A DNA stretch of 64,000 nucleotides from the NCBI GenBank assembly GCA_041747735.1, contig JBGTEP010000106.1:2980-66979 (forward strand), read 5' to 3'. The DNA comes from Chryseolinea sp. Its GTDB lineage: Bacteria > Bacteroidota > Bacteroidia > Cytophagales > Cyclobacteriaceae. Both the position numbers and the translations under genes were made by a program. The notes beneath the pieces were generated by a model that saw nothing but the letters and a program-made list of their open reading frames with translations, was not told the DNA's origin and did no database searches. Positions 3,465-20,681 of this stretch are shown piece after piece; within the stretch, counting starts at the first letter, position 1, and each line of letters opens with the position of its first letter.

Positions 3465-3611
3465 CTCCAAGTTGCCATCGAATTTTCTATCGTACACCCT
3501 ACTGGTGGGTCGCCTTTCCAATACTGCTTCCAATCCCTCCTCCACAAACCGTTTCTTGACTCTATCTATTGTCCGCATACCAACTTTAAGCACTTTACTT
3601 ATTTGCTCGTT
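3465..3611 (-). mobile_element. IS630-family transposase N-terminal HTH remnant
   Basis: Minus strand reads NEQISKVLKVGMRTIDRVKKRFVEEGLEAVLERRPTSRVYDRKFDGNLE and then diverges and stops. No start codon and no DDE domain. Confidence 0.75.
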
Positions 3612-4463: not shown

Positions 4464-4493
4464 TTAACTAATTATTACTTAACTAATTATTAC
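4464..4493 (+). repeat. Perfect 15-bp tandem duplication (TTAACTAATTATTAC)x2 just upstream of the gabT ATG
   Basis: Read directly: 4464-4478 and 4479-4493. Confidence 0.9.
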
Positions 4494-4495
4494 GA

Positions 4496-5833
4496 ATGGC
4501 TAAAACAACTACTCTGGATCGGCATCTATTATCATTTGAAAAAACTCAGCAACTCTTAGAAAGAAGGAGAGCAGTAGTAGCAAATGGCGTCAGCGTATTC
4601 GTTCCCTCGTCGGCGATGGAATCCAATGGGAGTACGATCATTGATGCGGATGGGAATCACCTGATTGATTTTGGCGGTGGGATTGGTGTGCTTAATGCCG
4701 GTCATTGTCCACCGACGGTTGTGGAAGCAATCCAAAGACAAGCCGGAAAACTTATTCATGCCTGTTTCAACATCTCAACATACATACCTTACCTGGAGCT
4801 ATGTGAAAAGTTGGTTGACCTATTTCCACATGGAGAGCAAACGAAAGCGATGTTAACCAATACAGGAGCGGAATCGGTCGAGAATGCAATAAAAATTGCA
4901 AGACAATCCACGAAGAGATCTGCGATACTTTGCTTCAGCGATGCATTTCATGGGCGCACCATGATGGCGATGACGCTAACCTCGAAAGTAGCTTACAAAA
5001 CAGACTGTGGGCCATTTGCTCCCGAAGTATACCGGCTTCCATTTCCGAATTATTATCACGATGGAAGTGGAATGTCCCAGGATGATTTTGCAGAGAAGGA
5101 ATTGAATAAACTATATGATTCAACGCATACACATGTTGATCCAAATTCAGTTGCCGCCATTATAATTGAGCTTGTTCAGGGTGAAGGAGGTTTCAACATC
5201 GCACCAAAAAGATACGTAGAGGGTCTTCGCAAATTCTGCGATGAATTCGGCATCATGTTGATTTTTGATGAAGTACAGACTGGTTTCTGCCGAACGGGAA
5301 GGTGGGCATCGTATCAGCACTATGGCGTCACCCCGGATATTTCCACGTGGGCGAAATCAATGGGTTCGGGAATGCCCATTGGTGCCGTGATCGGAAAGTC
5401 GGAAGTTATGGATGCCGCAGCCGTTGGGACCATAGGTGGAACCTATCCGGGAAATCCGGTTTGTTGTGCAGCGGCAATAGCCACGCTTAATTATATGGAG
5501 AACATAGACCTGAACGACAAGGCACAGCATATAAGTAAAATTATACACGGCCGTTTCTTAGCCCTGAAAGAAAAATGTCCGGCTATAGGAGACGTGCGAG
5601 GGCTGGGAGCCATGCAGGCGATTGAATTTGTAAAAGATAACGATCCATCACAGCCCGATGCTGAGACAGCAGCCCAGCTAGCCCGGGCGTGCCTGAGGCG
5701 CGGGTTGATTTTATTGAGCGCCGGAACAAACAAAAACGTTATTCGCGTGCTTAGCCCGCTGGTTATTTCAGAGGCATTGCTGAACGAAGGACTAAATATT
5801 ATTGAAGAGGAACTATTAAAACTAACTAACTAA
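4496..5833 (+). CDS. gabT: 4-aminobutyrate aminotransferase-like class III PLP aminotransferase
   Basis: DFGGGIGVLNAGH, TGAESVENA, FHGRT, QGEGG, FDEVQTGF, AKS (PLP Lys), GGTYPGNP. Confidence 0.85.
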   Translation: MAKTTTLDRHLLSFEKTQQLLERRRAVVANGVSVFVPSSAMESNGSTIIDADGNHLIDFGGGIGVLNAGHCPPTVVEAIQRQAGKLIHACFNISTYIPYLELCEKLVDLFPHGEQTKAMLTNTGAESVENAIKIARQSTKRSAILCFSDAFHGRTMMAMTLTSKVAYKTDCGPFAPEVYRLPFPNYYHDGSGMSQDDFAEKELNKLYDSTHTHVDPNSVAAIIIELVQGEGGFNIAPKRYVEGLRKFCDEFGIMLIFDEVQTGFCRTGRWASYQHYGVTPDISTWAKSMGSGMPIGAVIGKSEVMDAAAVGTIGGTYPGNPVCCAAAIATLNYMENIDLNDKAQHISKIIHGRFLALKEKCPAIGDVRGLGAMQAIEFVKDNDPSQPDAETAAQLARACLRRGLILLSAGTNKNVIRVLSPLVISEALLNEGLNIIEEELLKLTN

Positions 5834-5835
5834 GT

Positions 5836-6765
5836 ATGACGCCATTCTCCATAGCCGGAATTCAAATGCATGTTTCAGCAAGCCACACCAATGTACAGGT
5901 GATGAAACACAAAATCGACGTCATCATGTCCGTGTACCCTTGGGTTCAAATGGTCATGTTCAGTGAGCTTTGCCCCTTCGGCCCGCTAACATTTAACGCG
6001 CAGGAATTCCCGAATCAAACTGAAACCGACTTCTGTTTAATCGCGAAGCATTACGGGATCTGGCTTATCCCCGGAACAATGTTCCAGAAAAAGGAACAGG
6101 CTATCTATAACACTGCCACTGTCATTAATCCACAAGGGGAAATTGTTGGCAGGTATAACAAAATGTTTCCATTCTATCCCTATGAGGTAGGAGTTGCGGG
6201 CGGTGATGAATTTCTGATTTTCGACGTTCCGAAAGTCGGCAGGTTCGGGATTACGATCTGCTACGACATGTGGTTTCCTGAAACATCAAGGACACTTGCC
6301 GTGAACGGTGTGGAAGTTATTCTCCATCCCACACTTACCGCAACTATTGATCGGGACATTGAACTTGCATTGGTTCAGGCAACGGCCGCCACCAATCAAT
6401 GTTTCATTTTCGACATAAATGGATTGGGTGATGGTGGCACAGGCAGATCAATCGTGTGTGGACCAGATGGAAGAGTGCTGCACCAGGCCAGTACGGGTGA
6501 AGAACTGATTCCTATTGAAATTGATATGGAGCGCGTGCGACGCAGCCGCGAAATGGGTGTGCTGAGGTTGGGACAACCACTAAAAAGCTTTCGTGAAAGA
6601 AAAGTTCGGTTTGACATCTATCAGGATGATGCTCAAATACCATACCTCCATACGCTGGGAAAACTGAACAAGCCAACTCGCTTCGAGCAGATGAAAGAGG
6701 CACTGCAGTACAACGAACCTCCGTCACTTTCTTCAACACAGTCAAATAAATTTAAAAACAGTTGA
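5836..6765 (+). CDS. Carbon-nitrogen hydrolase (nitrilase superfamily amidase)
   Basis: E-K-C triad motifs FSE, YNKMFP, ICYDMWFPE. Confidence 0.9.
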   Translation: MTPFSIAGIQMHVSASHTNVQVMKHKIDVIMSVYPWVQMVMFSELCPFGPLTFNAQEFPNQTETDFCLIAKHYGIWLIPGTMFQKKEQAIYNTATVINPQGEIVGRYNKMFPFYPYEVGVAGGDEFLIFDVPKVGRFGITICYDMWFPETSRTLAVNGVEVILHPTLTATIDRDIELALVQATAATNQCFIFDINGLGDGGTGRSIVCGPDGRVLHQASTGEELIPIEIDMERVRRSREMGVLRLGQPLKSFRERKVRFDIYQDDAQIPYLHTLGKLNKPTRFEQMKEALQYNEPPSLSSTQSNKFKNS

Positions 6766-6782
6766 ATCTAACCGGTTGAAAA

Positions 6783-7193
6783 ATGAAAACATTAGTAAAA
6801 CACGTGAGCAAAGAAAAGTCATTAAACTTGAAACACTATGTTAATTGGTTTGAGCTACCTGCCTACAATTTTGAACGGGCTGTATCCTTTTACAATGCTA
6901 TCTACAGCATTAAGATGGAGACAACGGAAACAAACGGATATACTATGGGATTTTTTCCAGCGAAAGGCGGAATCGGTGGAGCGGTAGTTCAGGGAGAAGG
7001 ATGCGCGCCCAGCACAACCGGTCCATTAATTTATCTTAATGGAGGCAAGGATCTGAATGTTGTGCTCTCGAGGATCGAGGCCGCAGGTGGACGAGTCATT
7101 TTGCCAAAAACATTAATAAACGAGGCCGTTGGTCATTTTGCGCTTTTTATGGATACTGAGGGAAATCGGCTTGCCTTGCACTCAAAGAACTAG
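6783..7193 (+). CDS. VOC/glyoxalase family protein
   Basis: VNWFELPA...RAVSFY...GGRVILPKT...FMDTEGNRLALHS. Confidence 0.9.
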   Translation: MKTLVKHVSKEKSLNLKHYVNWFELPAYNFERAVSFYNAIYSIKMETTETNGYTMGFFPAKGGIGGAVVQGEGCAPSTTGPLIYLNGGKDLNVVLSRIEAAGGRVILPKTLINEAVGHFALFMDTEGNRLALHSKN

Positions 7194-7221
7194 AAGACCA
7201 TTCGGCCAATGACAATAAACA

Positions 7222-10026
7222 ATGCGGACAAAAAATAACGTTATGGACGGTACTCAACTAAAGGGACTCTATTATAATATCGCTCAGTTTCGTACGGAAA
7301 TTTGGGCTAACCTTAAATTAAAGGCTTACTCGCTTGCTAAGAATAAGAACAAACAAGAGCAAGAAGTGGAGAAAGCAGAGATACTGACGTTAATTAAGGA
7401 CATGCGGGAGGTTGAGCAATACTATGCATTTCCCGGAAATGAGATTTTGGAAACACTTAAAGGATTCATCAAACATGATGAATTTCAGATTCTTCGTAAT
7501 TCAATTACAGAGATTTTAAGATTGCTTGTGAGCGAGGGTTACCGGCAGGATCCTGAGACTCTTTCATTTTCATCCTTTCTAAAGAGGAAAGAAGGTAAAG
7601 GAACCCAAACACCAAAGTCAAGGAAAAGATATTTTGAGGTTTTATTTGTTGATAATCTTTCCGCCAATGATGAACAGCTAATCACCAGGAAGCCGCAGGA
7701 AGTGCGCGATCCCACGGAGCATTTTATTTATCAATTGGTGCATATTAAATCATATCAGGATTGCTTGATCGCATTGATCGCCAATCCTAACATACAAGCG
7801 TGTATCGTCCGAAGCGAAATTCCATTCAAGTCAAAAAACGCTAAAGATACTCTCGGCGCATTTACTTCGGATATCATAAATGACCAATACGAGGATCACC
7901 CCGAGTATGAGTTGGGTATTTTACTGGGCGACGCCATTCGAAAACTGCGTCCTGAAGTCGACATCTATTATGTCACAGACAAAGGAGTACAAAATGTGCA
8001 AGACAACTCATTGAAGAACTTCCAGCGGGTTTTTTACAGAAAAGAAGATTCACAAGAGCTGTATTTAAGTATCATAAGGGGAATTAAAGATCGCTACGAA
8101 ACTCCGTTTTATACGGCATTGAAAGAGTATAGCCAGAAACCAACGGGTGTCTTTCACGCAATGCCAATATCCCGTGGGAATTCAATTTTCAAATCCAATT
8201 GGATTGATGACTTCGGGGAATTTTACGGACGGAACTTGTTTCTCGCAGAAACTTCCTCAACAACTGGTGGCCTTGATTCATTGCTTCAACCTACCGGCCC
8301 TTTAAAGAAGGCCCAGGAACTGGCATCGAAAGCTTTTGGTTCCAGGCGCACTTACTTCGCAACGAATGGAACATCGACGTCTAACAAAATTGTATTGCAA
8401 GCATTGGTAGAACCGGAAGACGTGGTGCTGATAGATCGGGATTGCCATAAGTCACATCACTACGGCATGGTGCTTTCGGGTGCATACGTCACGTACCTGG
8501 ACTCGTATCCTTTACAAAAGTATTCCATGTATGGTGCTGTCCCGTTGGCCTCGATTAAGGAAAGACTGCTAGTGCTTAAGAAGGCCGGCCGGTTGGATCG
8601 GGTCAAAATGCTGCTGCTAACGAATTGTACATTTGACGGACTGGTTTATAACGTTGAACTCGTTATGGAAGAAGTGCTTGCCATAAAACCGGACATGATT
8701 TTTTTATGGGATGAAGCATGGTTTGCATTCGCTGCATTTGCACCAACCTATCGCAAGCGAACAGCAATGCACGTAGCCAATAAGCTGTTCAAAAAGTACA
8801 AGACTGAAGAATACAAGGAAGAGTACAAAAGACACCTCGCCGTCATTAAGAAAAAAGATACGGAGTCTTTACCATCGATGCCAGATCCGGACCTGGTGAA
8901 GATTAGGGTATACGCCACTCAGTCAACCCACAAGACGCTATCATCGCTTCGACAAGGTTCAATGATTCATATTTATGACGAAGAATTTGAGAGGAAGGCA
9001 GAAACTTCATTCCACGAAGCCTATATGACCCATACTTCGACTTCGGCAAACTATCAAATACTTGCATCTCTTGATATTGGAAGACGACAGGTTTCATTCG
9101 AGGGATATGAGCTTGTTGAAAAAAGTGTTGAGATGGCGATGATTTTGCGTGCAAAGATCAATGACCATCCAAAGCTGAAGAAGTATTTCAAGGTACTTAC
9201 CATCGCTGACTTAATCCCTGACCGACACCGTCAGTCAGGACTTTCAGAATATTATCGTCCGGGCTTTGGCTGGCAACGATTAGAAGAAGCATGGGACAAA
9301 GATGAGTTTGTTCTGGATCCGACTAAGATAAACCTTCATATCGGGAGAACAGGGATGGATGGAGATACCTTCAAGAACGAGTATCTGATGGACCAGTTCA
9401 ATATTCAGGTGAATAAGACCTCGCGCAATTCGGTGTTATTTATGACGAATATAGGGACCACAAGAAGTTCTGTGACCTATCTGATCAGCACTCTCCTAAA
9501 AATTTCCGAACAAATTGATGCTCGGTTTGATGCTCTCAACAATGAAGAGCACAGGATAATGCAGAACAAAATTTATTCACTAACGGAGGAAGCGCCGTCG
9601 CTGCCTGATTTCAGCTACTTCCATGATTCATTCCGTGCCGTAGCCGGCATTCCGGGTGGGCGAATGCGTGAGGCCTACTTCCTTGCCTACAAGGAAACAA
9701 AATGTGAATACGTCAAACTCTCCGAGTGTAATAAAATAATGCTGGAAGGAAGGATGCTTGTGAGTGCTGCATTTGTTATTCCATATCCGCCGGGCTTCCC
9801 GGTTCTTGTTCCAGGCCAGGTAATGACAAAAGAAATTCTTGATTTTCTTCAGGCACTTGATGTAAAAGAAATTCATGGTTACCGCCCGGATCTCGGCTTG
9901 CGCATTTTTACAGACGCCGCGCTCAACAGGCAGCAGTCGGGCTCAGGTTTAAGAGGTGCGACTGGAATGATGGGAGCACTCGGGAACGGTAACAGAAAGA
10001 GTAAAGTTGTTATCACCAAATCCTGA
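7222..10026 (+). CDS. Large fold-type-I PLP amino-acid decarboxylase (Orn/Lys/Arg decarboxylase class I, with N-terminal receiver-like wing)
   Basis: GGLDSLLQP, TNGTSTSNK, DRDCHKSHH, WDEAW, QSTHKT (PLP Lys), HTSTS, PYPPGFP; 934 aa. Confidence 0.9.
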   Translation: MRTKNNVMDGTQLKGLYYNIAQFRTEIWANLKLKAYSLAKNKNKQEQEVEKAEILTLIKDMREVEQYYAFPGNEILETLKGFIKHDEFQILRNSITEILRLLVSEGYRQDPETLSFSSFLKRKEGKGTQTPKSRKRYFEVLFVDNLSANDEQLITRKPQEVRDPTEHFIYQLVHIKSYQDCLIALIANPNIQACIVRSEIPFKSKNAKDTLGAFTSDIINDQYEDHPEYELGILLGDAIRKLRPEVDIYYVTDKGVQNVQDNSLKNFQRVFYRKEDSQELYLSIIRGIKDRYETPFYTALKEYSQKPTGVFHAMPISRGNSIFKSNWIDDFGEFYGRNLFLAETSSTTGGLDSLLQPTGPLKKAQELASKAFGSRRTYFATNGTSTSNKIVLQALVEPEDVVLIDRDCHKSHHYGMVLSGAYVTYLDSYPLQKYSMYGAVPLASIKERLLVLKKAGRLDRVKMLLLTNCTFDGLVYNVELVMEEVLAIKPDMIFLWDEAWFAFAAFAPTYRKRTAMHVANKLFKKYKTEEYKEEYKRHLAVIKKKDTESLPSMPDPDLVKIRVYATQSTHKTLSSLRQGSMIHIYDEEFERKAETSFHEAYMTHTSTSANYQILASLDIGRRQVSFEGYELVEKSVEMAMILRAKINDHPKLKKYFKVLTIADLIPDRHRQSGLSEYYRPGFGWQRLEEAWDKDEFVLDPTKINLHIGRTGMDGDTFKNEYLMDQFNIQVNKTSRNSVLFMTNIGTTRSSVTYLISTLLKISEQIDARFDALNNEEHRIMQNKIYSLTEEAPSLPDFSYFHDSFRAVAGIPGGRMREAYFLAYKETKCEYVKLSECNKIMLEGRMLVSAAFVIPYPPGFPVLVPGQVMTKEILDFLQALDVKEIHGYRPDLGLRIFTDAALNRQQSGSGLRGATGMMGALGNGNRKSKVVITKS

Positions 10027-10028
10027 AG

Positions 10029-11471
10029 ATGCAAGCGAACCAACCGAAACGACCCGAACTAAAAAGAGCGATCAGCAAAGCTGGATTTTTCTGCCTTGCA
10101 TTTGGTGCTATGATTGGGGTAGGCTGGGTTACCGCGATGGGGCCATGGCTTCGAACAGCAGGTCCTCTTGGTGCAGCAATTGCCTTCGCTATCGGAGGCC
10201 TGCTTATGTTGTTCATTGGCTTCTGCTACGCTGAAGTTACAGCCATGCTTCCTGTATCAGGAGGGGAAGTAGCCTATGCCTACAAAGCCTTTGGCAGCAG
10301 GCACTCTTTCTTAGTCGGATGGTTTCTTGCGTTCGGTTATATATCTGTTTCAGCGTTTGAGGCAATATCTGTCGGGAAAATTCTTAGCTATCTGTTCCCG
10401 TTTGTGGATCGGTGGCCGCTCTATTCAATTAATGGCGACACCATCTTTGGAACGCATTTGCTACTTGCTCTCTTTTTTGTTTCAGTGATCACCTACGTAA
10501 ACTATACTGGTGTTCGGAATTCGATGCGATTTCAAATATACCTGACTATAGTTTTTCTCCTTATAGTTTTGTGTGTTGCAATAGTAGGTCTTGTACAAGG
10601 AAAAATCGCTAACCTTCAACCGCTCTTTGTTGGGAACTCCTCCCCGGATATTGCGGCTGGCATAACGAGTGTGATCGTTACAGTTCCATTCTGGCTCGTA
10701 GGATTTGATACAATACCACAAGGGGCGGAAGAGGCCAAGGAAACAGTTTCTCACCGGACGATCGGCATCTTGATTTTAGTCTCAATAATTGCCGCAGTGC
10801 TGTTTTACATTTTGTTGATATTCAGCGCATCGATGGTGACGAGTTGGTCTTCATTATCGGGATCAGAATTATTTACAGCGAGTGCTTTTGAAATTGCTTT
10901 TGAATCCGATATCCTGGTAACTGGAATTTTAATTGCCATTATCATCGGACTTCTCACAAGTTGGAATGGTTTTTTCTTGGCAGGATCACGGGTGCTTTTT
11001 GCTATGGGTCGTGGTAAAATAGTTGCCCCTTCGCTTGGTGAATCTCACGCGAAATACGAAACACCATATAATGCGGTGATTTTTAGTGGCGTGATCACAC
11101 TGCTTTCCACATTGCTTGGCCGTGGGGCTATGATCGCATTTGTCAACGTTGGGTCTTTGTGTATCGCAGGCGCATTTCTTGGAGTCTCATTTTCGTACCT
11201 GCGTTTGAGAAAATCTTTCCCCGATCAACTGCGTCCCTATAAGGCGCCAGGAGGAAAACGGACAGGATACATTTCTATTGCTGGCTCAATATTGATCTTA
11301 CTTGCCATTACACTGCCCGGAAGTCCCGCCGCTTTGAAGTGGCCAATGGAGTGGGCCATTTTTTCGACTGTGTGTTTTTTGGGAGCAATTCTATGGATTG
11401 GTTCAAAATCAAGTCGCAGCGCGACTTCAAGCCAGGACAGGGACTATCTTATTTTAGAAAATTTCAATTAA
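10029..11471 (+). CDS. APC-family amino acid/polyamine permease
   Basis: GAMIGVGW, YAELxxxxPxxGG-like YAEVTAMLPVSGG, GFDTIPQGAEE; about 12 TM helices. Confidence 0.9.
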   Translation: MQANQPKRPELKRAISKAGFFCLAFGAMIGVGWVTAMGPWLRTAGPLGAAIAFAIGGLLMLFIGFCYAEVTAMLPVSGGEVAYAYKAFGSRHSFLVGWFLAFGYISVSAFEAISVGKILSYLFPFVDRWPLYSINGDTIFGTHLLLALFFVSVITYVNYTGVRNSMRFQIYLTIVFLLIVLCVAIVGLVQGKIANLQPLFVGNSSPDIAAGITSVIVTVPFWLVGFDTIPQGAEEAKETVSHRTIGILILVSIIAAVLFYILLIFSASMVTSWSSLSGSELFTASAFEIAFESDILVTGILIAIIIGLLTSWNGFFLAGSRVLFAMGRGKIVAPSLGESHAKYETPYNAVIFSGVITLLSTLLGRGAMIAFVNVGSLCIAGAFLGVSFSYLRLRKSFPDQLRPYKAPGGKRTGYISIAGSILILLAITLPGSPAALKWPMEWAIFSTVCFLGAILWIGSKSSRSATSSQDRDYLILENFN

Positions 11472-11487
11472 CAAACCCCATTTTACA

Positions 11488-13062
11488 ATGAATTCAACAC
11501 AAAGTAAAGAAAATAGCAGTCCGGCAATAAAGTCTGCTGCTGTTGCCGTTTCCGAGAGAAGAAATACCGGAACAGTCAGAAAAATGACATCTAAAAAGAA
11601 GAATACAAAGGTACTGAATGGGATTCCAGACATAAGAAGATTCTTTTACAGAAATGAAATACCGATATACTTTGTGAGTGCTACCAATTTCAATCTGCTT
11701 GGTGCCGACGAATGGATTAAAGGTTTCAAGTTTATCTGCTATATAGAATGCTTCGATGGGTTGCACCCGAACGTCTTTTCACCGAAGGAAGAAATAGCCC
11801 ACGATGAATTTAAAAGTATAGAAGACATTAACAATTACCTGCTCGAGCACAAAGAGGTGGTAGACTATCTAAAGGAACGAGGTGGAAAAGGAAAAGCATT
11901 GTTCCTGATGTTTGACGAGCGTACCGAGGAATTAGCGAAGCAACTTGGATTAGAAGTATGTTTTCCCTCCGCTGAGATGAGAACATTTATGGATAATAAA
12001 GTAAATACAAACCGAATCGCTGAGAAAGCCGGGGTTCCTTGTGTGCCGTATATTTTATCTAATGTTATGAGTTATGAACACCTGGTTTCGATCAGTAAAA
12101 AGAAACTCGGTACCGACCTTGTCATACAAACTCCTTTTGGTGACTCTGGGCACACGACTTTTTTTATTTCCAACCAGGAGGAATGGGAGAAGCATGCAGA
12201 TGAAATTATCGGGGAAAAAGAGGTGAAGATCATGAAACGTATTAACTGCCGCGGTTCTGCGATAGAGGCGTGCGTTACGAGACATGGTACTATCGTGGCT
12301 CCGTTAATGACAGAGCTAGTAGGATTCAAAGAACTTACACCGTACAAGGGAGGGTGGTGTGGAAATGAAATCTATGCTGACGCTTTCACACCCGAGATCA
12401 GAAAAAAGGCGCAGGAGTATACGCAGCTTTTCGGCAACCAGCTAAGGGACGAGGGTTATAAAGGTTATTTTGAACTTGACTTTCTTATCGACCTGGATGA
12501 TCAGCAGATTTACCTCGGTGAATTGAATCCCAGGATAACAGGCGCCAGTTCTATTACCAACCATGCGGTATTTGCTTTGTCAGATATGCCTATGCTGTTG
12601 TTTCATATGATGGAGTGGATGGATCAACCTTACAAGCTAAATGTCAAGGCACTTAACAGCCGTTGGTTCAAACCGGAAAACATTGATTCGTGGGGACAGC
12701 TTGTTATTAAACATACCGGAAAAAATATACAAGTGATAGCGGAAGCTCCGCGCTCCGGAATTTATAAAATGAACGAGGACGGCACGATTAAATTCTCAAG
12801 AATGGACACACACCGAAGGGCCGTGGAGACGGAGAAGGAAGCGTTCTTCCTTCGAATCAGCCGCACCGATGATTATTATTATGAGGGTGCTGACCTGGGC
12901 ATACTGGTTATGCGTGGACGCCTGATGACTGATGATTTTACGCTAAACCCAAGAGCGAAGAAGTGGATAAAGGCGATCAAGCAGTTATACGCTGCCGTGG
13001 CCTATGTGCCTCAGGCATCTGTTCCGGAAGTAGCTGAGATTGGAGGATTTAAAATGATGTAG
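11488..13062 (+). CDS. ATP-grasp carboxylate-amine ligase of unknown substrate
   Basis: DNKVNTNRIAEKAGVP, QTPFGDSGHTT, FELDFL, GELNPRITG. No biotin carrier gene nearby. Confidence 0.8.
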   Translation: MNSTQSKENSSPAIKSAAVAVSERRNTGTVRKMTSKKKNTKVLNGIPDIRRFFYRNEIPIYFVSATNFNLLGADEWIKGFKFICYIECFDGLHPNVFSPKEEIAHDEFKSIEDINNYLLEHKEVVDYLKERGGKGKALFLMFDERTEELAKQLGLEVCFPSAEMRTFMDNKVNTNRIAEKAGVPCVPYILSNVMSYEHLVSISKKKLGTDLVIQTPFGDSGHTTFFISNQEEWEKHADEIIGEKEVKIMKRINCRGSAIEACVTRHGTIVAPLMTELVGFKELTPYKGGWCGNEIYADAFTPEIRKKAQEYTQLFGNQLRDEGYKGYFELDFLIDLDDQQIYLGELNPRITGASSITNHAVFALSDMPMLLFHMMEWMDQPYKLNVKALNSRWFKPENIDSWGQLVIKHTGKNIQVIAEAPRSGIYKMNEDGTIKFSRMDTHRRAVETEKEAFFLRISRTDDYYYEGADLGILVMRGRLMTDDFTLNPRAKKWIKAIKQLYAAVAYVPQASVPEVAEIGGFKMM

Positions 13063-13066
13063 GCAG

Positions 13067-14056
13067 ATGCTCATCTCTTTCAATTGTATTCAGGAAGATA
13101 AGCCAGGCGAAAAATGGAAAGCCCTGTTTAAAAGAACATGGCGACACTATAAACACTGGTTTTTGTCGGAAGGATACCTGGCGAGGAAAGGATACCTCAC
13201 TTCTGTTAATCAATTGCAAACTTCAATGCCGGAGCTTATGCCAATTTATGAACGACTCGTTGAACTTGTTGGCGGCGGTGATCTCGAAGCCAGATTCCTT
13301 AGCATGTACTCGCCACCTGCGTACATGTCAGCGTGCTCGCAAGTAGCATGGACTCAGGATGGTGCTTCCTTGATAAGAAACTATGACTACAGTCTAAAGA
13401 TGTTCGAGGGAACGATGTTGTATTCCAATTGGTTGCAGCCGGTCGTTGGTGTTACCGATTGTAACTGGGGGCTTCTCGACGGAATGAATGGATCCGGGCT
13501 CGCAGCTTCTTTGACTTTCGGTGGTCGAAAAGTTGTTGGCGAAGGATTTGGGATTCCTCTTATTATGCGATACATCTTAGAAACTTCGCGAACAGTTAAG
13601 GACGCGATAAATGTTTTACATCGTGTCCCGGTTCACATGGCCTACAATGTTACGCTAATCGAACGTTCAGGACTATTCGCAACCGTATTTCTCTCTCCCG
13701 ACAGGCCACCTGTGGTTATCGACGAGCCGGTTGCAACAAACCATCAGACAGAAGTTGAATGGAGTGATTATGCTTCGTTAACCGGAACTATAGAGCGTAA
13801 GCGAGTTCTCGAGGAACTGATCGCATCAACCCGTGAGACTGAAACAAGTGTGCTTGGACATTTTCTGAACCCGCCGCTCTACAACACGAATTTTGAGAAA
13901 TTGTTCGGAACCCTGTACACGGTAATATATCGGTTACATAAACAAGAAGCGGAGGTCATATGGCCCGGAATGGAGATCAAACAGACATTTACATCTTTCG
14001 ATGAAATGTGTTTGGTCCCTTTTACAATCAACATGAACAAAGACCTGGCCCGGTAA
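13067..14056 (+). CDS. C45-family autoproteolytic Ntn-hydrolase/acyltransferase
   Basis: Candidate nucleophile Cys90 (SAC|SQ), IRNYDY, LDGMNGSGLA, ATNHQ. Confidence 0.85.
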   Translation: MLISFNCIQEDKPGEKWKALFKRTWRHYKHWFLSEGYLARKGYLTSVNQLQTSMPELMPIYERLVELVGGGDLEARFLSMYSPPAYMSACSQVAWTQDGASLIRNYDYSLKMFEGTMLYSNWLQPVVGVTDCNWGLLDGMNGSGLAASLTFGGRKVVGEGFGIPLIMRYILETSRTVKDAINVLHRVPVHMAYNVTLIERSGLFATVFLSPDRPPVVIDEPVATNHQTEVEWSDYASLTGTIERKRVLEELIASTRETETSVLGHFLNPPLYNTNFEKLFGTLYTVIYRLHKQEAEVIWPGMEIKQTFTSFDEMCLVPFTINMNKDLAR

Positions 14057-14137
14057 CAAACTGGTTCGGGTAGAAGAGATTCTCTTCTCTTCTTCTCTAC
14101 GTCTAAATAGAAAAATGGAAAGCTAAAATTTTAATTT

Positions 14138-14953
14138 ATGGATGTGTTGATTGAAGTATTTGATAACATAAAGAAAGCGCTCGTTGAAAACGTCGTGGAA
14201 CTCCTTCCAAACCTGGGTCTTTCCCTCATCGTGGTTCTTGTCGGTATTGCGATAGCCTGGATGGCCAGGAGGGTAACGATAAGGCTGATTCTTTATATTG
14301 ATCGGAAAGTCAACGAAAGGTTAAGTGTGCGTTTGTTAAAAATTGATCTACAAAGCGTCGCGAAGGCTTTAGCCAGGGCAATGTTTTGGACGATCATATT
14401 GTTCACAATTGCTGTGATTATCCAAATACTCGGAATGTCAATTCTTACTACGTGGGTCAATGACCTGATTAAATATGTCCCGAATATTCTGGCAGTACTA
14501 CTGATTATTGTTTTTGGAATTGTTTCCGGAAAGCTGGCTGGTGATTTGATTTCATCCGCATCCGCAAGAGCGGGACTGACTACCGGTAACCAACTCGGCA
14601 GGTTAGTTCACATACTTATACTGGTAGTGACTTTTATCATCGCTATTGACCAAATAGGGATTGATATGGAATTTCTAACTAACATACTGACCATTATTGT
14701 GGCTTCATTATTATTTGCGGCTGCACTGGCATTCGGGCTTGGCGCAAACGTTTCAGTTAGTAACATACTCGGATCATATTACCTCCAACAGGTTTACAAG
14801 GAGGGCGATAAGGTCAGAATAAATGACATCGAAGGAATCATCATAAGAGTTACAGCAACAGTTGTTCTGATCGAAACCGAATCCGGCAGGGTTGTCATTC
14901 CATCAAAAGTTTTCAATGAATCGAAGTCTGAACTAATTAAGTCTAACACATGA
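14138..14953 (+). CDS. Small-conductance mechanosensitive channel-like membrane protein (TM-helix repeat/MscS)
   Basis: Multiple TM helices; ALAFGLG...NILGS...GDKVRIND IEG MscS beta-domain. Confidence 0.8.
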   Translation: MDVLIEVFDNIKKALVENVVELLPNLGLSLIVVLVGIAIAWMARRVTIRLILYIDRKVNERLSVRLLKIDLQSVAKALARAMFWTIILFTIAVIIQILGMSILTTWVNDLIKYVPNILAVLLIIVFGIVSGKLAGDLISSASARAGLTTGNQLGRLVHILILVVTFIIAIDQIGIDMEFLTNILTIIVASLLFAAALAFGLGANVSVSNILGSYYLQQVYKEGDKVRINDIEGIIIRVTATVVLIETESGRVVIPSKVFNESKSELIKSNT

Positions 14954-15777
14954 ATTACGACACACTTTTACTTGAGAATTTCGTCAAATATCACACAACC
15001 GAAGCAGCGGTCCTGACTGAGAGTTTGCAAGATTCGGAGGTTGAAAAAGGGTTTAATACTTTACCAACGAAAGTATTACTTGCCCTGTTGAGTCAAATGG
15101 ATCGTTATAAAGTGTTGAAAGGTATCGAAACCTTAGACGAATCAAAGCTTACGGCCCTGTTTGAATCATTTCCAATTTCCGTCGCGAGAATACTGCTTTC
15201 TCAGATGGATGAGCAAAAAAGAAACTTGATTCTCGAAAACATATCTAAGGAGAAAGCAAGATCAATTCGGGTTGTTCTGAGCTATTCAGAAAATGCAGTC
15301 GGCGCCTACATGGATTCCCGTCCCTTCTTTCTCACGGACGACAGCAACGTAGGTGAAGCGATAGAGAAGATAAAAGAAAGCTCACAGGATGCCTTTCAAC
15401 ATCTCCCAATTATAGGACGTGATCAAAAATTGGTGGGCGTTGTCGATGTAAAATCATTGTTAGTTTCGGACAAGGAAAAATCTCTTCACTCCATCATGAT
15501 GGATGCCCCATTCAAAATATTGGCAGAAATGGATATGGAGGTTTTACTGGAACCTGGCGCCTGGGACGATGCATTTGTATCCTTGCCAGTAGTTGATGCC
15601 AGTGGAATATTCTTAGGTGTTTTACAGAGAAAAACGGTCACAAGTTTTGTCCCGTTCAAGAAGGTGCTTAGCAAAGAAGTGGCAGCGGCAAGCTCTGCTT
15701 TAGGTGATTTATACCGGATCGGGTTTCTAAGTATTGTCAGAGGCGCAAATGAAATTGGTTCAAGAAACGCAAAATAA
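14950..15777 (+). CDS. Soluble MgtE N-terminal + CBS-pair protein lacking the membrane domain
   Basis: YSENAVGAYM, CBS motifs (KLVGVVDVKSLL; LPVVDASGIFLG); no hydrophobic C-terminus. Confidence 0.75.
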   Translation: MNYDTLLLENFVKYHTTEAAVLTESLQDSEVEKGFNTLPTKVLLALLSQMDRYKVLKGIETLDESKLTALFESFPISVARILLSQMDEQKRNLILENISKEKARSIRVVLSYSENAVGAYMDSRPFFLTDDSNVGEAIEKIKESSQDAFQHLPIIGRDQKLVGVVDVKSLLVSDKEKSLHSIMMDAPFKILAEMDMEVLLEPGAWDDAFVSLPVVDASGIFLGVLQRKTVTSFVPFKKVLSKEVAAASSALGDLYRIGFLSIVRGANEIGSRNAK

Positions 15778-17096
15778 TGGAAGCTTTAACTCAACATAAA
15801 GAATTCACAACAACGCTATTGGACTATTATTTCAGGAAATATCCTGACGAAGTAGCCGAGTCACTAAATGAATTTCCCACGGATTATCTCGTCGAATGCT
15901 TAAAAGGATACTCGCCCGAGATCTCCCGTGAAATTCTATCAAAACTGTCCAGTCAGTCAGCAACAGAGGTTCTTACCCTCATGGACGAACCATCGTTTGT
16001 AAGTTTGATTTCCGGAATGGATACATACACTGCTGCAATTTTGATATCGCGATTGGAAAAACCGCTCGTGGAAGAAAGGCTCAGGTCGCTTGGTTCTAAA
16101 TTTTCATCCGCAATACGTGCGTTGTTGTCCTATCCACCGGAATCCGCAGCCTTTCTTATGGACACACGGATGAAGTTATTTAGAGAAACTGATTCCGTTA
16201 GCGATGTTCTCAATACGCTGCGTAACCATGGAGACAGAAGCCTGGTGGTTTTATATGTAGTAGACCCGGACGGTAAATTACTCGGAACCGTTCCCATCCA
16301 TGTTATTGCGGTTTCGCCTCCAGGGGAACAGATGGCTAACTTAGTCGGGAAGTCAGTCTTTGTTGAAGCGCTGGCGCCTCGCGAAGAAGTTGTCGAATTA
16401 CTTCAGGACGGTAAGTTAATAAGCCTTCCCGTGGTTGATGTCAACCATAGGATGCTTGGGGTTATTCGATATGATGCGCTTGTCAAAGCTGCTCAACACG
16501 ACGCAACCGAAGACTCCCTCGCCATGTTTGGTGCCGGACGTGAAGAGAAGGCATTGTCAGGTGTTTGGTTTGCGATAAGAAAACGATTGCCCTGGCTTGA
16601 AATAAATCTGGCAACAGCGTTCCTGGCCGCATCGGTCGTAGCACTTTTCGAAGATACTATTGCACGAATAACCGTCCTTGCCGTATTTCTTCCCGTAGTT
16701 GCCGGCCAGTCTGGAAATACAGGTTCTCAAGCACTGGCGGTAACAATCCGCGGTTTGGCATTACGTGAAATACACATTGGTCAATGGTTTAAAGTTGCCC
16801 GAAAGGAAGTATTAGTCGGACTCGTAAATGGTATTGTTATTTCTCTCAGCACAGCTATTATTGTCTTCTTTTGGGCCTCATCGCTTGGATTAGGAGTAGT
16901 GATCGGCGTGTCAATGATCTTTTCTATGGTCATTGCCGGATTTTCGGGAGCTGTGATTCCCATCCTCTTAAAATCGTTTGGACAGGATCCGGCGCAATCA
17001 TCGTCCATCGTATTAACCACAGTAACTGATATCGTTGGCTTTCTAAGTTTTCTCGGACTGGCAAATGTTTTGGGCGACATGTTGGGTGTTGTGTAA
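15777..17096 (+). CDS. mgtE: Magnesium transporter MgtE
   Basis: YPPESAAFLM, CBS pair, KRLPWL, GNTGSQ, DPAQSS...TDIVG. Confidence 0.9.
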   Translation: MEALTQHKEFTTTLLDYYFRKYPDEVAESLNEFPTDYLVECLKGYSPEISREILSKLSSQSATEVLTLMDEPSFVSLISGMDTYTAAILISRLEKPLVEERLRSLGSKFSSAIRALLSYPPESAAFLMDTRMKLFRETDSVSDVLNTLRNHGDRSLVVLYVVDPDGKLLGTVPIHVIAVSPPGEQMANLVGKSVFVEALAPREEVVELLQDGKLISLPVVDVNHRMLGVIRYDALVKAAQHDATEDSLAMFGAGREEKALSGVWFAIRKRLPWLEINLATAFLAASVVALFEDTIARITVLAVFLPVVAGQSGNTGSQALAVTIRGLALREIHIGQWFKVARKEVLVGLVNGIVISLSTAIIVFFWASSLGLGVVIGVSMIFSMVIAGFSGAVIPILLKSFGQDPAQSSSIVLTTVTDIVGFLSFLGLANVLGDMLGVV

Positions 17097-17153
17097 TGAC
17101 CGATTGTCTTTTCGCAAGACTAAACTGAAATTAGGTAAATAATACAAGGTTAT

Positions 17154-18509
17154 ATGAACTTCACAAGCATCAACCCATTCAACGGATCCAGGATAGGCAA
17201 TTATAAAAAACATAATGAAGCGGATGTTCTTAGGATAATAAACAAAGCACAGCAAACTTTTGATAGTTGGCGTAAGGTCTCGGTGAAAGAGCGTGCTGCG
17301 CTTATCTCAGCCGTAGGAGATGCCTTGCGGAAAAATACTGAAAAGTATGCGCGGATGATAACGCAGGAGATGGGAAAACCGATTGCGGAATCACGCGCGG
17401 AAATTAAAAAATGCGCCTGGGTATGTGATTATTATTCAGACCATGCCGAAAAATTGCTCGCTGAAGAAACGATAAAGACGGAGGCATCCTGGAGTTTTGT
17501 GAGACATGATGCTATCGGTTGTGTGTTGGCTATAATGCCATGGAATTTTCCTTTCTGGCAAGTATTTAGATTTGCGGCACCCGCACTTGCGGCAGGTAAT
17601 ACTGCCTTGCTAAAGCATGCACCCAATGTGTTTGGCTGCGCTACTTATATTTCCGATGCTTTCCGGGACGCGGGAATTCCCGATGGAGTATTTCAAAATC
17701 TTTTTATTGACACGGATGCTATTGGCGGCGTCATCGCTGACAAATCAGTGAAAGCGGTTACGCTGACAGGTAGCGAACGGGCAGGGTCTGCTGTGGCTGC
17801 CCTTGCTGGCAAACATCTAAAAAAAACTGTATTGGAATTGGGAGGAAGCAACGCATTCATAGTTCTTGAGGACGCGAATATTGCAGACGCCGTACGAATT
17901 GCTGTGACGTCAAGGATGCAGAACGCAGGACAAAGTTGTATTGCTGCAAAACGATTTTTAGTGGTCGAACAAGTATACGATGATTTTGTCGCGGGATTCA
18001 TATCAGAAGTTAAGAAACTGAAGTCAGGGGATCCCATGAATGAAACTACTCAGCTAGGCCCGCTTGCACGCATTGATCTCGCCAATCAACTACAACGGCA
18101 GGTTCAGGAGTCTGTCAAGGCTGGAGCGGAACTCCTCCTCGGAGGCAACCAGCAAGGTTGTTTTTATGAACCCACCGTTCTGGGAAACGTCACTCCGGGA
18201 ATGCCAGCATTTGACGAAGAGACATTTGGTCCGCTTGCACCAATGATCAAAGTGAGAGACGCAGCGGAAGCAATTAAGTTTTCAGAGATGTCTAGATATG
18301 GATTGGGTGTAACCCTCTTCACTCAAAATAAAAACAACGCCATGGCAATGGCTGAAGAGTTCACGGACGGCGCTTGCTTTGTTAATGAACTGGTTAAATC
18401 CGACCCAAGACTACCCTTTGGAGGGACGAAGTCCTCTGGTTATGGGCGAGAATTATCACGCGACGGCATGATGGAATTCGTGAACAGGAAGACGGTGTAC
18501 ATTAAGTAA
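17154..18509 (+). CDS. gabD: NAD(P)-dependent succinate-semialdehyde dehydrogenase
   Basis: MPWNFPFWQ, LKHA, TGSERAG, LELGGS, QSCIA, EETFGP, PFGGTKSSGYGREL. Confidence 0.85.
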   Translation: MNFTSINPFNGSRIGNYKKHNEADVLRIINKAQQTFDSWRKVSVKERAALISAVGDALRKNTEKYARMITQEMGKPIAESRAEIKKCAWVCDYYSDHAEKLLAEETIKTEASWSFVRHDAIGCVLAIMPWNFPFWQVFRFAAPALAAGNTALLKHAPNVFGCATYISDAFRDAGIPDGVFQNLFIDTDAIGGVIADKSVKAVTLTGSERAGSAVAALAGKHLKKTVLELGGSNAFIVLEDANIADAVRIAVTSRMQNAGQSCIAAKRFLVVEQVYDDFVAGFISEVKKLKSGDPMNETTQLGPLARIDLANQLQRQVQESVKAGAELLLGGNQQGCFYEPTVLGNVTPGMPAFDEETFGPLAPMIKVRDAAEAIKFSEMSRYGLGVTLFTQNKNNAMAMAEEFTDGACFVNELVKSDPRLPFGGTKSSGYGRELSRDGMMEFVNRKTVYIK

Positions 18510-18797
18510 TTTAGGTGACGTTTGGAACGCCGGATCGTCAAATTTGTCGGTGTACTTCAAGAACCCCAATCGACTTTACCTCTTGAAACGACTTCGGCGA
18601 AAGTACCTCCGTTGTACGTCTTAGAAGATGCGATGCCAAGGGAGTTCGAAAGAAATTTTACCGAATTATGAACGTCCGGGACTAATAATCGTTGCAGGAA
18701 AATTCAAAATGCCTAAATTCCCGGATTGTACGTAGCATAGGTTTTTGATGAGAATACATCTTTTCCAGCTAATAATACGCACAGTAATTAATACGAC

Positions 18798-20681
18798 ATG
18801 TTTCAAAAAAATAAGAGAATATTAGCTACCCTTTGTTGTCTCTGCCTAACGTGGGAGCTACCTGCGTTTAGCCAGTTCCAAAATCTCCCGATGAATCAAA
18901 TACCCCTCACCGATTTAAGCGCCTTTAAACCCGTTGATGGCAACTGGAAGCTGGTCGAGGATGTGTTTTTTGATCCTCTTAAAAACAAAAAACCGCAGAT
19001 CGACAAAGGCAGTGGCGTATTATTGAACATTCCTTCGGATAGTGAAAAAGATAATTTGTTTACGAACCTTGAACACGGCGATATAGAGCTGGAATTGGAT
19101 TACATGATCGCGAAAGGCTCCAATTCCGGGGTTTATCTACAGGGTCGCTACGAGGTGCAGATTTTTGATTCTTGGGTCAAAGCTAACCCAAATTTTTCGG
19201 ACGCAGGGGGTATCTACCAGCGTTGGAATACTAGCTTGGAAGCCGGAAAGAAAGGTTTTGAAGGACATTCACCTTTGGTAAGCGTAAGCAAAGCACCGGG
19301 CTTATGGCAGCACTATCGGATTATATTTCAGGCACCAAAGTTCAATGCGCAAGGCCAGAAAATTGCCAATGCCCGCTTTTTAAAAGTTTACCACAACGGA
19401 GTACTGGTGCATGATAACGTAGAATTATCCGGTCCCACGCAGTCAGCGGCGTTTGAAGATGAAAAACCGCTAGGGCCACTCATGATTCAGGGCGACCACG
19501 GACCGGTGGCTATCCGGAATATCAAATACAAAATTTTCTCGGACGATGAAGTGAAAGTGAGCAATATACGCTATGCCACCTACGATGGCGCCTTTCAGCA
19601 AATACCTGATTTTACGAAGCTAACTCTACAAAAGGAAGGGGAGAGCGAATACATTCAGCCGGGGATGGGTGCCAATACCAATAATTTCGCAGGACAAATT
19701 ACCGGTACGATAGAGATTCCAAAACGCGGGCAATACCTTCTTGAAATGCAGTATTCGGCTATTGTATCCGATCCGCATTTCGCGAATAACCCCAGTGGTG
19801 GCGGGGATCTAGAAATTGCCGGAAAAAAAATACTGGAGTTAGATCAGCGCGGGAAAGAAACTACAGCTCAGGTCGACTTGCCGGCTGGCTCTCATCCATT
19901 TACAATTCAGTACTACAGCCGTATCCCCAGTGAAAATAAGAGTATCCGATTGTATATAGAAGGAACAGGCACAAGGCGGCAGGCCGTAGGCAGTCCACCG
20001 GTTATTCCGGATCCGGACCCGGCAGGTGTAATAACCTTGGTTGCCAAAAATGAACCGATTGTGCAACGCAGCTTTGTGCAACACAACGAGGAAAAGAAAA
20101 CACATGCAGTTTCGGTAGGAGAGCCAGGCGGAGCAAACTATTCCCTTGATTTAAAAAATGGGGCCTTGTTACAAATTTGGCGCGGGCCTTTTCTTGAAAC
20201 GACACCGATGTGGCACCAGCGTGGCGATGATCAAATAGGCAAACCCCTGGGCAGCATCATCACGCTTTCGGGAGCCCCCTCGCTGGCAGCGCTACCAGAT
20301 AAAAATACTGAATGGCCCGACTCGATGACTACGGCTGCCAATTATAAATTCTTGGGGTATACCCTTGATAAAACCGGCAGACCTACTTTTAGATATACGT
20401 TGGGCAACGCACAGGTGCGAGAACAATTTGTACCGGAAAACGACATGCGGCAACTTAAGCGGCATTTTTCTTTCCAGGGCAGTACCCACAACATGTATTG
20501 TCGGGTAGCTACCGGCAAAATTAAAGAACTAGCAAACGGTCTTTACAGCATTAACGACAAGGAATATTTTATCAGCCTGTATGACACCAAAGTGCAACCA
20601 CTGGTGCGAAACATGGGCAGTGAACAGGAATTGTTACTGCCGGCGGAGAATAATCAAATCAGTTATACTATCATTTGGTAA
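18798..20681 (+). CDS. Secreted DUF1080 (3-keto-disaccharide hydrolase-like) + PA14-like protein
   Basis: Signal peptide; NSGVYLQGRYEVQI, GQW-like GLWQHYRI, NGVLVHDN, QGDHGPVAIRNI. Confidence 0.8.
   Translation: MFQKNKRILATLCCLCLTWELPAFSQFQNLPMNQIPLTDLSAFKPVDGNWKLVEDVFFDPLKNKKPQIDKGSGVLLNIPSDSEKDNLFTNLEHGDIELELDYMIAKGSNSGVYLQGRYEVQIFDSWVKANPNFSDAGGIYQRWNTSLEAGKKGFEGHSPLVSVSKAPGLWQHYRIIFQAPKFNAQGQKIANARFLKVYHNGVLVHDNVELSGPTQSAAFEDEKPLGPLMIQGDHGPVAIRNIKYKIFSDDEVKVSNIRYATYDGAFQQIPDFTKLTLQKEGESEYIQPGMGANTNNFAGQITGTIEIPKRGQYLLEMQYSAIVSDPHFANNPSGGGDLEIAGKKILELDQRGKETTAQVDLPAGSHPFTIQYYSRIPSENKSIRLYIEGTGTRRQAVGSPPVIPDPDPAGVITLVAKNEPIVQRSFVQHNEEKKTHAVSVGEPGGANYSLDLKNGALLQIWRGPFLETTPMWHQRGDDQIGKPLGSIITLSGAPSLAALPDKNTEWPDSMTTAANYKFLGYTLDKTGRPTFRYTLGNAQVREQFVPENDMRQLKRHFSFQGSTHNMYCRVATGKIKELANGLYSINDKEYFISLYDTKVQPLVRNMGSEQELLLPAENNQISYTIIW

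Follow-up and report, generated by a model that had tools for sequence, protein, structure and literature searches.

In Mycobacterium tuberculosis, the ATP-grasp enzyme Rv1722 (GabtS) ligates GABA to trehalose with the use of ATP, according to a preprint in which the enzyme assays were n=1 and in which GABA conjugation is presented as apparently unique to mycobacteria (bioRxiv 10.64898/2026.04.15.718621). The same species makes GABA with Rv2531c, a decarboxylase without activity on Lys, Orn or Arg (PMC13506015), and both Rv1722 and Rv2531 were flagged as horizontally acquired by Veyrier et al. (PMC3087520). Making and breaking of a small-molecule conjugate is established for the glutathionylspermidine/trypanothione synthetase-amidase, in which an ATP-grasp-type synthetase forms an amide that a Cys-nucleophile amidase cleaves again; in that system a single protein carries both activities, the amidase part is of the CHAP fold and the substrates are glutathione and spermidine (PMC2427367). 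Among the bacterial C45 enzymes, Streptomyces AzsT (AzsT/Tri14) removes a small C4-acyl (succinyl) amide that is carrier-bound (PMC10445470). No literature was found on PRK06524, or on an ATP-grasp enzyme, a C45 enzyme and a decarboxylase together.

We analysed a stretch of 64,000 nucleotides from Chryseolinea sp. (the window), in which a gene for an ATP-grasp ligase is followed by a gene for a C45-family hydrolase (Table 1). Most likely, this pair attaches GABA to a partner molecule using ATP and then cleaves the conjugate again. The earlier note had described adjacent genes 4 bp apart with intact ELNPR and Cys90 motifs, and the open reading frames, the gap (stop codon TAG at 13060-13062, spacer GCAG at 13063-13066, ATG from 13067) and the two motifs were all confirmed. 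No Rfam families were found in positions 2500-19500, and scans for promoters and terminators gave background levels. No sequence relationship was detected between the pair and the glutathionylspermidine/trypanothione synthetase-amidase.

Table 1. Positions of the ligase, the C45 enzyme and associated genes in the window, with predicted functions.
Feature	Position	Strand	Basis or remark
ATP-grasp ligase, 524 aa	11488..13062	+	NCBIfam NF005096 member (Rv1722/GabtS family; legacy name "biotin carboxylase")
ELNPR motif (E345, N347, R349)	12520..12534	+	Mg-ATP/acyl-phosphate site of the ATP-grasp fold
C-terminal tail EIGGFKMM with Lys522, after a variable linker	13036..13059	+	Conserved in orthologues
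C45-family N-terminal-nucleophile (Cys) hydrolase/acyltransferase proenzyme, 329 aa	13067..14056	+	PF03417, NF040521
Cys90 codon, predicted nucleophile and autoprocessing site (Ala89/Cys90)	13334..13336	+	Invariant residue, model
Long-form (Rv2531c-type) L-glutamate decarboxylase, 934 aa	7222..10026	+	PDB 9n0o/9n0n match; function from PMC13506015
APC-family amino-acid permease	10029..11471	+	PF13520, PF00324
GABA aminotransferase (GabT-like, class III)	4496..5833	+	TIGR00700
CN-hydrolase (nitrilase-superfamily amidase), intact E44-K109-C142 triad	5836..6765	+	PF00795
Small VOC/glyoxalase-fold protein, 136 aa	6783..7193	+	PF00903 matches in orthologues
Succinate-semialdehyde dehydrogenase-like ALDH	17154..18509	+	PF00171; top NCBIfam matches are SSADH models

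Judged by its sequence, the ligase is a member of the Rv1722/GabtS family of ATP-grasp ligases (NF005096 / PRK06524). It scored 778.1 bits against NF005096, for which the equivalog cut-off is 684, and the match covered positions 5-483 of the 493 in the profile. The alignment with Rv1722 spans 474 residues with 3 gaps (42% identity, 65% positives, E 1e-154), thus the full catalytic length, and the conserved ATP-grasp motifs are the same in the two proteins. Residues E345, N347, P348 and R349 of the ELNPR motif (345-349) were invariant in 42 aligned family members. The MTBC genome contained a single match to NF005096, which had the top score in these searches (about 925-926 bits). Examination of the surrounding 4.5 kb showed that this match adjoins a 415-aa SxxK hydrolase with Ser107, corresponding to Rv1723 (bioRxiv 10.1101/2025.02.25.640225), which identifies it as Rv1722. 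In the AF2 model of the window ligase (pLDDT 84.4), residues 1-36 and 511-524 are disordered. In the family tree, the window clade and the Rv1722 clade are two sister major clades, joined by a node with a support of 98/94. This placement speaks against our model to the extent that the substrates of the two clades may differ.

The downstream enzyme is, on the evidence of its profile matches and structure model, a Cys-Ntn member of the peptidase C45 family with a fold like that of isopenicillin-N acyltransferase (IAT), and autoproteolysis is predicted. Scores were 102.3 bits for PF03417 (cut-off 23.2) and 140.8 bits for NF040521 (cut-off 85). The predicted nucleophile Cys90 lies within the sequence YMSA/CSQVAW, and C90, R104, D107, N141, R168, H190 and N225 were invariant in 39 orthologues. 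In the AF2 model (pLDDT 91.9), a strand at residues 89-95 that is started by Cys90 follows a helical pro-region at residues 15-79; the predicted autoproteolysis would expose this nucleophile. A PDB sequence search gave nothing significant, and the best PDB fold identified by Foldseek was the P. chrysogenum IAT (2x1c, E 1.5e-14, TM 0.69/0.65), followed by NAAA, acid ceramidase, BSH and PVA. The closest folds were thus all Cys-Ntn amide hydrolases or acyltransferases. The similarity to IAT is restricted to 16% sequence identity, and the gene context is unrelated to the beta-lactam or hydrazine natural products of IAT and AzsT.

Upstream of the pair, the decarboxylase is an orthologue of Rv2531c, the long-form glutamate decarboxylase of M. 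tuberculosis. Residues 59-913 matched PDB 9n0o with 803 bits, and the protein has the extra N-terminal domain of the long form. Six of the seven key residues are identical (H405, K406, K570, R576, T606 and N731, all invariant in 65 orthologues), and the position of R718 is a Lys in 65 of 65 orthologues. Since the enzyme is of the Rv2531c type and its glutamate-recognising residues are conserved, the amine that it supplies would be GABA rather than a diamine.

The other genes of the cassette were compared across 80 related loci. The GABA aminotransferase, which scored 508.6 bits against TIGR00700 (cut-off 506.65), was kept in 56-57 of these, and the CN-hydrolase, the triad of which was invariant in 54 orthologues, in 62-63. 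As a point against our model, the CN-hydrolase could be the real "break" enzyme of the cassette. The VOC/glyoxalase-fold protein, with profile matches to PDB 2r6u, 3oxh and 4pav, has orthologues of which 11 of 16 matched PF00903. The APC permease was found in 18-19 loci, exclusively in the Cyclobacteriaceae-type version of the cassette, and an ALDH is located downstream of the C45 gene in many relatives. In the window, the C45 gene is followed by MscS and MgtE genes, which lack conservation with the pair and were dropped from the model.

We examined the co-occurrence of these proteins in 401 evenly sampled Bacteroidota genomes and found a nested set: the decarboxylase was present in 9 genomes, the ligase in 8 (always beside the decarboxylase) and the C45 enzyme in 6. 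In all six, the C45 gene was located directly downstream of the ligase gene, and window-type C45 proteins were found nowhere else in the sample (Fisher p = 5e-12). Taken together with the position of C45 directly after the ligase in 69 of the 80 related loci, this is far more than chance adjacency. The gene order decarboxylase-ligase-C45 was kept at ligase identities of only 40-44%, with the C45 proteins equally diverged, to 42%. The C45 enzyme was absent from the whole genome in two of the eight ligase-bearing Bacteroidota and in 5-6 of the 7 loci that lack an adjacent C45 gene, which counts against our model in that the ligase can do without C45.

The ligase gene of other lineages adjoins the gene of an amidase-signature enzyme in one locus and those of M20, GATase and C45 proteins in another; a 339-aa gene behind a Myxococcales homolog was considered as a further C45 and found not to be one. 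In M. tuberculosis, the hydrolase gene also follows immediately after the ligase gene, with an overlap of 4 bp (GTGA), but Rv1723 is a beta-lactamase-fold serine hydrolase. Unlike that of the window ligase, the gene of Rv1722 lies apart from the decarboxylase gene, and the genetic tie between the two is nevertheless seen in both systems: among mycobacteria, an Rv2531c-type decarboxylase was present in 25 of 30 ligase-positive as compared to 8 of 31 ligase-negative genomes. The ligase was not found in M. shinjukuense.

As far as can be judged from comparative genomics, the C45 enzyme and the ligase thus depend on each other functionally, as a hydrolase and a ligase that act after the decarboxylase. 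This part of the earlier note, which had proposed a make/break pair, is borne out by the nested co-occurrence, the gene order, the co-divergence and the replacement of the hydrolase by non-homologous hydrolases in other lineages, while its analogy to the diamine pathway of PuuA and PuuD was not supported. A novel dipeptide, osmolyte or storage polymer, the other suggestion made there, may still be the product.

We infer that GABA is the carboxylate substrate of the ligase, that the product is an amide and that C45 is the hydrolase of this amide. Within a mobile GABA operon, the two enzymes would form the branch that handles conjugation. GABA would come from the long-form glutamate decarboxylase, and the ligase would activate the carboxylate of GABA as an acyl phosphate and couple the acyl group to an acceptor. 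C45 would process itself between Ala89 and Cys90, and Cys90 would then cleave the conjugate, so that GABA is released for GabT and SSADH. We lean towards this model as a whole, in which the ligase joins GABA to an acceptor and C45 cleaves the conjugate again, with moderate confidence. Co-expression of a ligase and its hydrolase from one operon is a consideration against it, as this would be an ATP-wasting cycle unless regulated.

The acceptor is probably an amine, in which case the conjugate would be a gamma-aminobutyryl amide; such a product is suggested by the hydrolase partners found in other lineages, most of which are amidases. Trehalose, the acceptor of Rv1722, is an unlikely candidate for a general acceptor: no more than 4 of the 27 cassette genomes showed OtsA or TreS (OtsA in 4 and TreS in 2, the two routes covered by the search), and most of them thus could not make trehalose by these routes. 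The genome from which the window derives does encode OtsA-OtsB and TreS, so that trehalose may be the acceptor in this organism.

Three other readings of the pair were considered. In the first, the ligase would attach GABA (or a different acid) to the lysine epsilon-amine in its own EIGGFKMM tail, which would serve as acceptor or swinging arm, and C45 would release or transfer the tethered group, possibly with GabT, ALDH and the CN-hydrolase acting on it too. The logic would resemble that of LysW/LysX, with the carrier placed within the ligase. A variable, disordered linker leads up to the tail, which itself shows strong conservation; tails of this type (FK[ML][MLI]) were seen in about 58 orthologues, and an adjacent C45 gene accompanied them at every locus on a contig that extends far enough. 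Rv1722 works with a free acceptor and lacks the Lys-bearing tail, and more distant family members also show tails with a lysine. The cassette encodes an aminotransferase, an ALDH and hydrolases like the LysW pathway, and the substrate of AzsT is carrier-bound, as noted above. The homology shown to LysX does not, however, go beyond the ATP-grasp fold, and LysW is a separate small protein in which a glutamate of the tail provides the carboxylate. Moreover, the GSLTK tail that replaces EIGGFKMM in the Flavobacteriaceae-type orthologues was found both with and without C45, GabT and SSADH resemble ordinary enzymes for free substrates, and the cost of one ATP per GABA would bring no obvious benefit over the free GABA shunt. 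Overall, we consider a tethered intermediate unlikely.

It is similarly doubtful that the pair is biosynthetic, with C45 passing the acyl group made by the ligase on to a second acceptor in the manner of IAT, and builds an end product, for example an osmolyte, a dipeptide-like compound or oligo-GABA. Such a role would agree with the acyltransferase activity of the closest solved fold, with the strict dependence of C45 on the ligase in its distribution and with a GT1 glycosyltransferase gene that adjoins a related ligase gene. However, plain hydrolases (Rv1723, the amidase-signature enzyme, M20, GATase) replace C45 elsewhere, the rest of the cassette is catabolic (GabT, SSADH), and no export or tailoring genes were conserved with it in the 80 loci.

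The ligase may instead activate another carboxylate, for example the gamma-carboxyl of glutamate, with GABA serving as the amine; the product would then be gamma-glutamyl-GABA and C45 a PuuD-like hydrolase. The split of the window enzyme and Rv1722 into different major clades leaves space for such a change, a related ligase has a neighbouring gene of the class-I GATase type, to which PuuD belongs by fold, and C45 enzymes cleave omega-linked acyl amides, such as the aminoadipyl group of the IAT substrate. Yet it is usually the carboxylate for which specificity is better conserved within an ATP-grasp family, and GABA itself is the acid activated by the sole characterised member (bioRxiv 10.64898/2026.04.15.718621), which makes this reading improbable as well.

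Much less probable is the earlier note's suggestion of a non-homologous PuuA/PuuD analogue, in which a diamine (putrescine or cadaverine) from the decarboxylase is glutamylated. The pathway logic is similar, as a ligase, an aminotransferase, an ALDH and a hydrolase are encoded in one operon, and the Puu pathway of E. coli likewise combines an ATP-dependent conjugation with a later Cys-hydrolase step and ends in GABA, GabT-type transamination and SSADH. But PuuA (gamma-glutamylputrescine synthetase) is glutamine-synthetase-like, PuuD (gamma-glutamyl-GABA hydrolase) is a class-I GATase, and the pathway starts from putrescine, whereas the amine of the window would be GABA straight from glutamate. 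The decarboxylase is of the type that is inactive on Lys, Orn and Arg (PMC13506015), with the glutamate-binding residues R576, T606, K406 and N731 invariant; no amine oxidase is present, and GabT and SSADH fit free GABA.

Finally, a true biotin carboxylase, which the earlier note had raised as the alternative to an amide ligase and for which the NCBIfam name of the family and the nearest solved folds of the model (biotin carboxylases and PurK, TM about 0.5-0.6) could be cited, can be practically dismissed: the accC equivalog TIGR00514 gave 27.9 bits against a cut-off of 626.5, Biotin_carb_N and Biotin_carb_C were lacking and ATP-grasp_3 and CPSase_L_D2 were sub-threshold, the PDB sequence search returned weak biotin-carboxylase matches only, the central domain alone aligned to AccC, with E345/N347/R349 on E288/N290/R292, T351 on Q294 and the invariant Ala353 on the catalytic base E296 (hhalign, E. 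coli AccC), no BCCP or carboxyltransferase genes were present in the conserved clusters of the 80 loci, and Rv1722 of the same family is reported as a ligase. PGM1-like enzymes, also brought up there for comparison, were represented neither by a PGM1-type Pfam match nor among the best 50 folds, which were biotin carboxylases, PurK and PurD. Thousands of related sequences thus carry the wrong label "biotin carboxylase" in databases.

Until now, the only description of ATP-dependent GABA conjugation has been a 2026 preprint on M. tuberculosis. Our comparison places the ligase family in a mobile glutamate-to-GABA cassette, with relatives in Bacteroidota, Balneolota, Planctomycetota and beyond, where it is almost always accompanied by a dedicated hydrolase. 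The mycobacterial genes Rv2531c, Rv1722 and Rv1723 resemble a dispersed version of this cassette, and Rv1723 is predicted to be the obvious candidate for the missing GABA-trehalose breakdown enzyme. If the tethered reading were true, the cassette would encode a self-contained, carrier-tethered pathway of LysW/LysX-like logic with the carrier built into the ligase. The model that we prefer, with free conjugation of GABA, predicts that environmental bacteria contain an undescribed GABA conjugate, probably an amide, which would be turned over by a C45 Ntn hydrolase.

The ligase and the C45 gene are adjacent, as the earlier note had read them, with GCAG alone as the 4 bp between them, and the motifs described there as intact, ELNPR (ligase residues 345-349) and Cys90 within YMSA|CSQVAW of C45, are both invariant in the orthologues. 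The N-terminal extensions of the ligase orthologues are basic, low in complexity, Lys/Ala/Pro-rich and histone-H1-like, and vary widely in length, up to ~60 aa. The family HMM begins at residue 32 of the window ligase, and Met33 is an alternative start.

Features of the window and of compared loci
Feature	Position	Strand	Remarks
Region upstream of gabT	3295-4495		1.2 kb; no ORF of at least 80 aa, no Rfam match
ATP-grasp ligase	11488-13062	+	524 aa; stop TAG
Ligase N-terminus	11488-11607		~40 disordered residues, Lys/Ser/Thr-rich
C45 gene	13067-14056	+	329 aa; start ATG at 13067
Terminator-like hairpin	14072-14088		weak; 7 pairs (3 GC), 16 nt past C45 stop
MscS-like channel gene and MgtE genes	14138-17096		inserted stretch between C45 and SSADH gene
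Stand-alone MgtE_N/CBS protein	14950-15777		same inserted stretch
Full MgtE	15777-17096		same inserted stretch
Rv1722/Rv1723 overlap, M. tuberculosis complex	L092 2979-2982 (G249:C1, ~1.949 Mb)		4 bp, GTGA
C45 orthologue, other Bacteroidota genome	G661:C9:5638-6612		one in-frame TAA
Decarboxylase orthologue, other Bacteroidota genome	G410:C15:49452-52184		one in-frame TAA
Second, partial copy of the set, window's assembly (G000)	contig C10, locus L107, 1-2873		contig 2.9 kb; ligase 3' part, 419-aa C45 with C-terminal extension, ALDH start

The ligase matched the Pfam ATP-grasp models weakly and NF005096 of NCBIfam (PRK06524) over its whole length (778 bits, cut-off 684), a model that carries the database name "biotin carboxylase". 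The possibility, raised in the earlier note, of a true biotin carboxylase is effectively excluded: the accC model scored 28 bits against a cut-off of 626, neither the N-terminal nor the C-terminal biotin carboxylase domain is present, and in a profile alignment with E. coli AccC the central domain alone aligns. There, E345/N347/R349 fall on AccC E288/N290/R292, and the catalytic base E296 is aligned with an invariant alanine, which also argues against this identity. The predicted model (pLDDT 84.4) resembles biotin carboxylase, PurK and PurD with TM scores no higher than 0.5-0.6.

In an evenly sampled set of 401 high-quality Bacteroidota genomes, the long-form decarboxylase was found in 9, the ligase in 8, always adjoining the decarboxylase, and the window-type C45 in 6, always directly after the ligase and in none of the remaining 393 genomes sampled (Fisher p = 5e-12 for co-occurrence of C45 and ligase). 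Such nesting is expected if each enzyme takes the product of the preceding one. The decarboxylase-ligase-C45 set is kept down to 40-44% ligase identity, and C45 is equally diverged in those loci (42%). Elsewhere in the family, the hydrolase beside the ligase differs by lineage: Rv1723 in mycobacteria, an amidase-signature enzyme that abuts a related ligase with zero gap, or an M20 peptidase, a class-I GATase and C45. Other decarboxylases, of a 727-aa OKR type and of PLP group II, recur upstream of family ligases. The nested distribution, co-divergence and lineage-specific hydrolases support the make/break pairing proposed earlier.

The neighbourhood comparison took in 80 related loci, drawn from Bacteroidota, Balneolota and Planctomycetota; many of the compared genomes are MAGs. 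The conserved order is GabT, CN-hydrolase, (small VOC protein), 920-aa decarboxylase, (APC permease), ATP-grasp ligase, C45, (ALDH), and no recurrent gene families beyond this set were found among the 80 loci. The MscS and MgtE genes of the window lie outside it; similar genes occur near one other locus only (L077), on the opposite strand. The region upstream of gabT could house the promoter of the operon along with its regulatory region, or be what is left of a decayed gene. The in-frame TAA codons in two orthologues suggest that cassette genes decay now and then, or that the sequences contain errors.

The window decarboxylase matched the cryo-EM structure of M. tuberculosis Rv2531c with 803 bits. 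Rv2531c was identified in 2026 as a long-form L-glutamate decarboxylase, inactive on Lys, Orn and Arg (PMC13506015). Across 65 orthologues, residues H405, K406, K570, R576, T606 and N731 do not vary, and all 65 have Lys at position R718. The match and the kept key residues indicate that the amine made is GABA rather than a diamine, so that the earlier analogy with PuuA/PuuD acting on a diamine fails and is effectively excluded. GabT scored over the GABA-transaminase equivalog cut-off, and SSADH models are the closest to the cassette ALDH.

From its profile matches (PF03417, 102 bits; NF040521, 141 bits; both over cut-off), the second protein is clearly assigned to the C45 Ntn enzymes, and C90, R104, D107, N141, R168, H190 and N225 are invariant. 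The best solved relative of its high-confidence model (pLDDT 91.9) is the isopenicillin-N acyltransferase precursor 2x1c (TM 0.69), followed by NAAA, acid ceramidase, bile-salt hydrolases and penicillin V acylases; these closest relatives are all Cys-Ntn enzymes with amide substrates. A biosynthetic acyltransferase role for C45 is a less likely alternative. AzsT, a characterised bacterial C45, takes off a succinyl amide (PMC10445470). The hairpin past C45 fits a conserved core that, in close relatives, finishes with this gene.

Rv1722, an ATP-grasp protein once annotated as a carboxylase and now named GabtS, is reported to use ATP to link GABA, through its carboxylate, to trehalose (preprint 10.64898/2026.04.15.718621). 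The M. tuberculosis complex genome, picked by a 100% match to Rv2531c, has one NF005096 match only, with the highest score observed for that model (925 bits), and its stop is overlapped by the gene for a 415-aa SxxK hydrolase with Ser107 as motif serine. Since the active-site residue published for Rv1723 is Ser107 (10.1101/2025.02.25.640225), the hydrolase is Rv1723 and the ATP-grasp gene Rv1722. Aligned with Rv1722, the window ligase shows 42% identity and 65% similarity across 474 residues, with three gaps; judged by sequence, homology is certain, but the family tree places the two enzymes in sister major clades and the same substrates are not certain, activation of an acid other than GABA being a less likely alternative. 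Rv1723 is an active Ser107 hydrolase for which we know of no natural substrate and, as it overlaps Rv1722, is an obvious candidate for GABA-trehalose breakdown. Rv2531c-type decarboxylases were found in 25/30 ligase-positive versus 8/31 ligase-negative mycobacterial genomes (p = 8e-6), and Rv1722 and Rv2531 are both among the horizontally acquired genes of Veyrier et al. (PMC3087520). Several mycobacteria have a second long-form decarboxylase, just 44-46% identical to Rv2531c, and two genomes (G040, G054) have two NF005096 ligases each; some species may carry a second, more cassette-like copy.

Trehalose is unlikely to be the general acceptor, since a search covering two routes of its synthesis, OtsA and TreS, recovered OtsA in 4/27 cassette genomes, TreS in 2/27 and either one in 4/27; the window's own genome has both. 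Outside mycobacteria, the ligase partners are all amide hydrolases (C45, CN-hydrolase, amidase-signature enzyme, M20, GATase), and the CN-hydrolase triad E44-K109-C142 is intact. These partners, with the AzsT analogy, make a GABA amide conjugate the more likely product than an ester.

At the C-terminus of the ligase, a disordered linker leads into a strongly conserved tail, EIGGFK[ML][MLI]; wherever this tail occurs and the contig extends far enough, C45 is adjacent. A Flavobacteriaceae-type subgroup has another tail, GSLTK, with C45 divergent or absent; genome-wide searches of its seven C45-less genomes found none in 5-6 of them. The tail could serve as acceptor, as swinging arm or as a peptide on which C45 docks, and a tail-tethered pathway is a further, less likely alternative; a similar tail is absent from Rv1722, and distant family members often have other Lys-bearing tails. 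The ligase of the partial second copy in the window's assembly ends in KLTGSLTK, of Flavobacteriaceae type; this copy may represent a genuine paralogous pair, or its contig may be contamination from another organism (estimated contamination 1.84%).

On balance, we lean towards a GABA operon with the pair as its conjugation branch, in which the GabtS-family ligase would form a GABA conjugate and C45, its putative hydrolase, would break it down.
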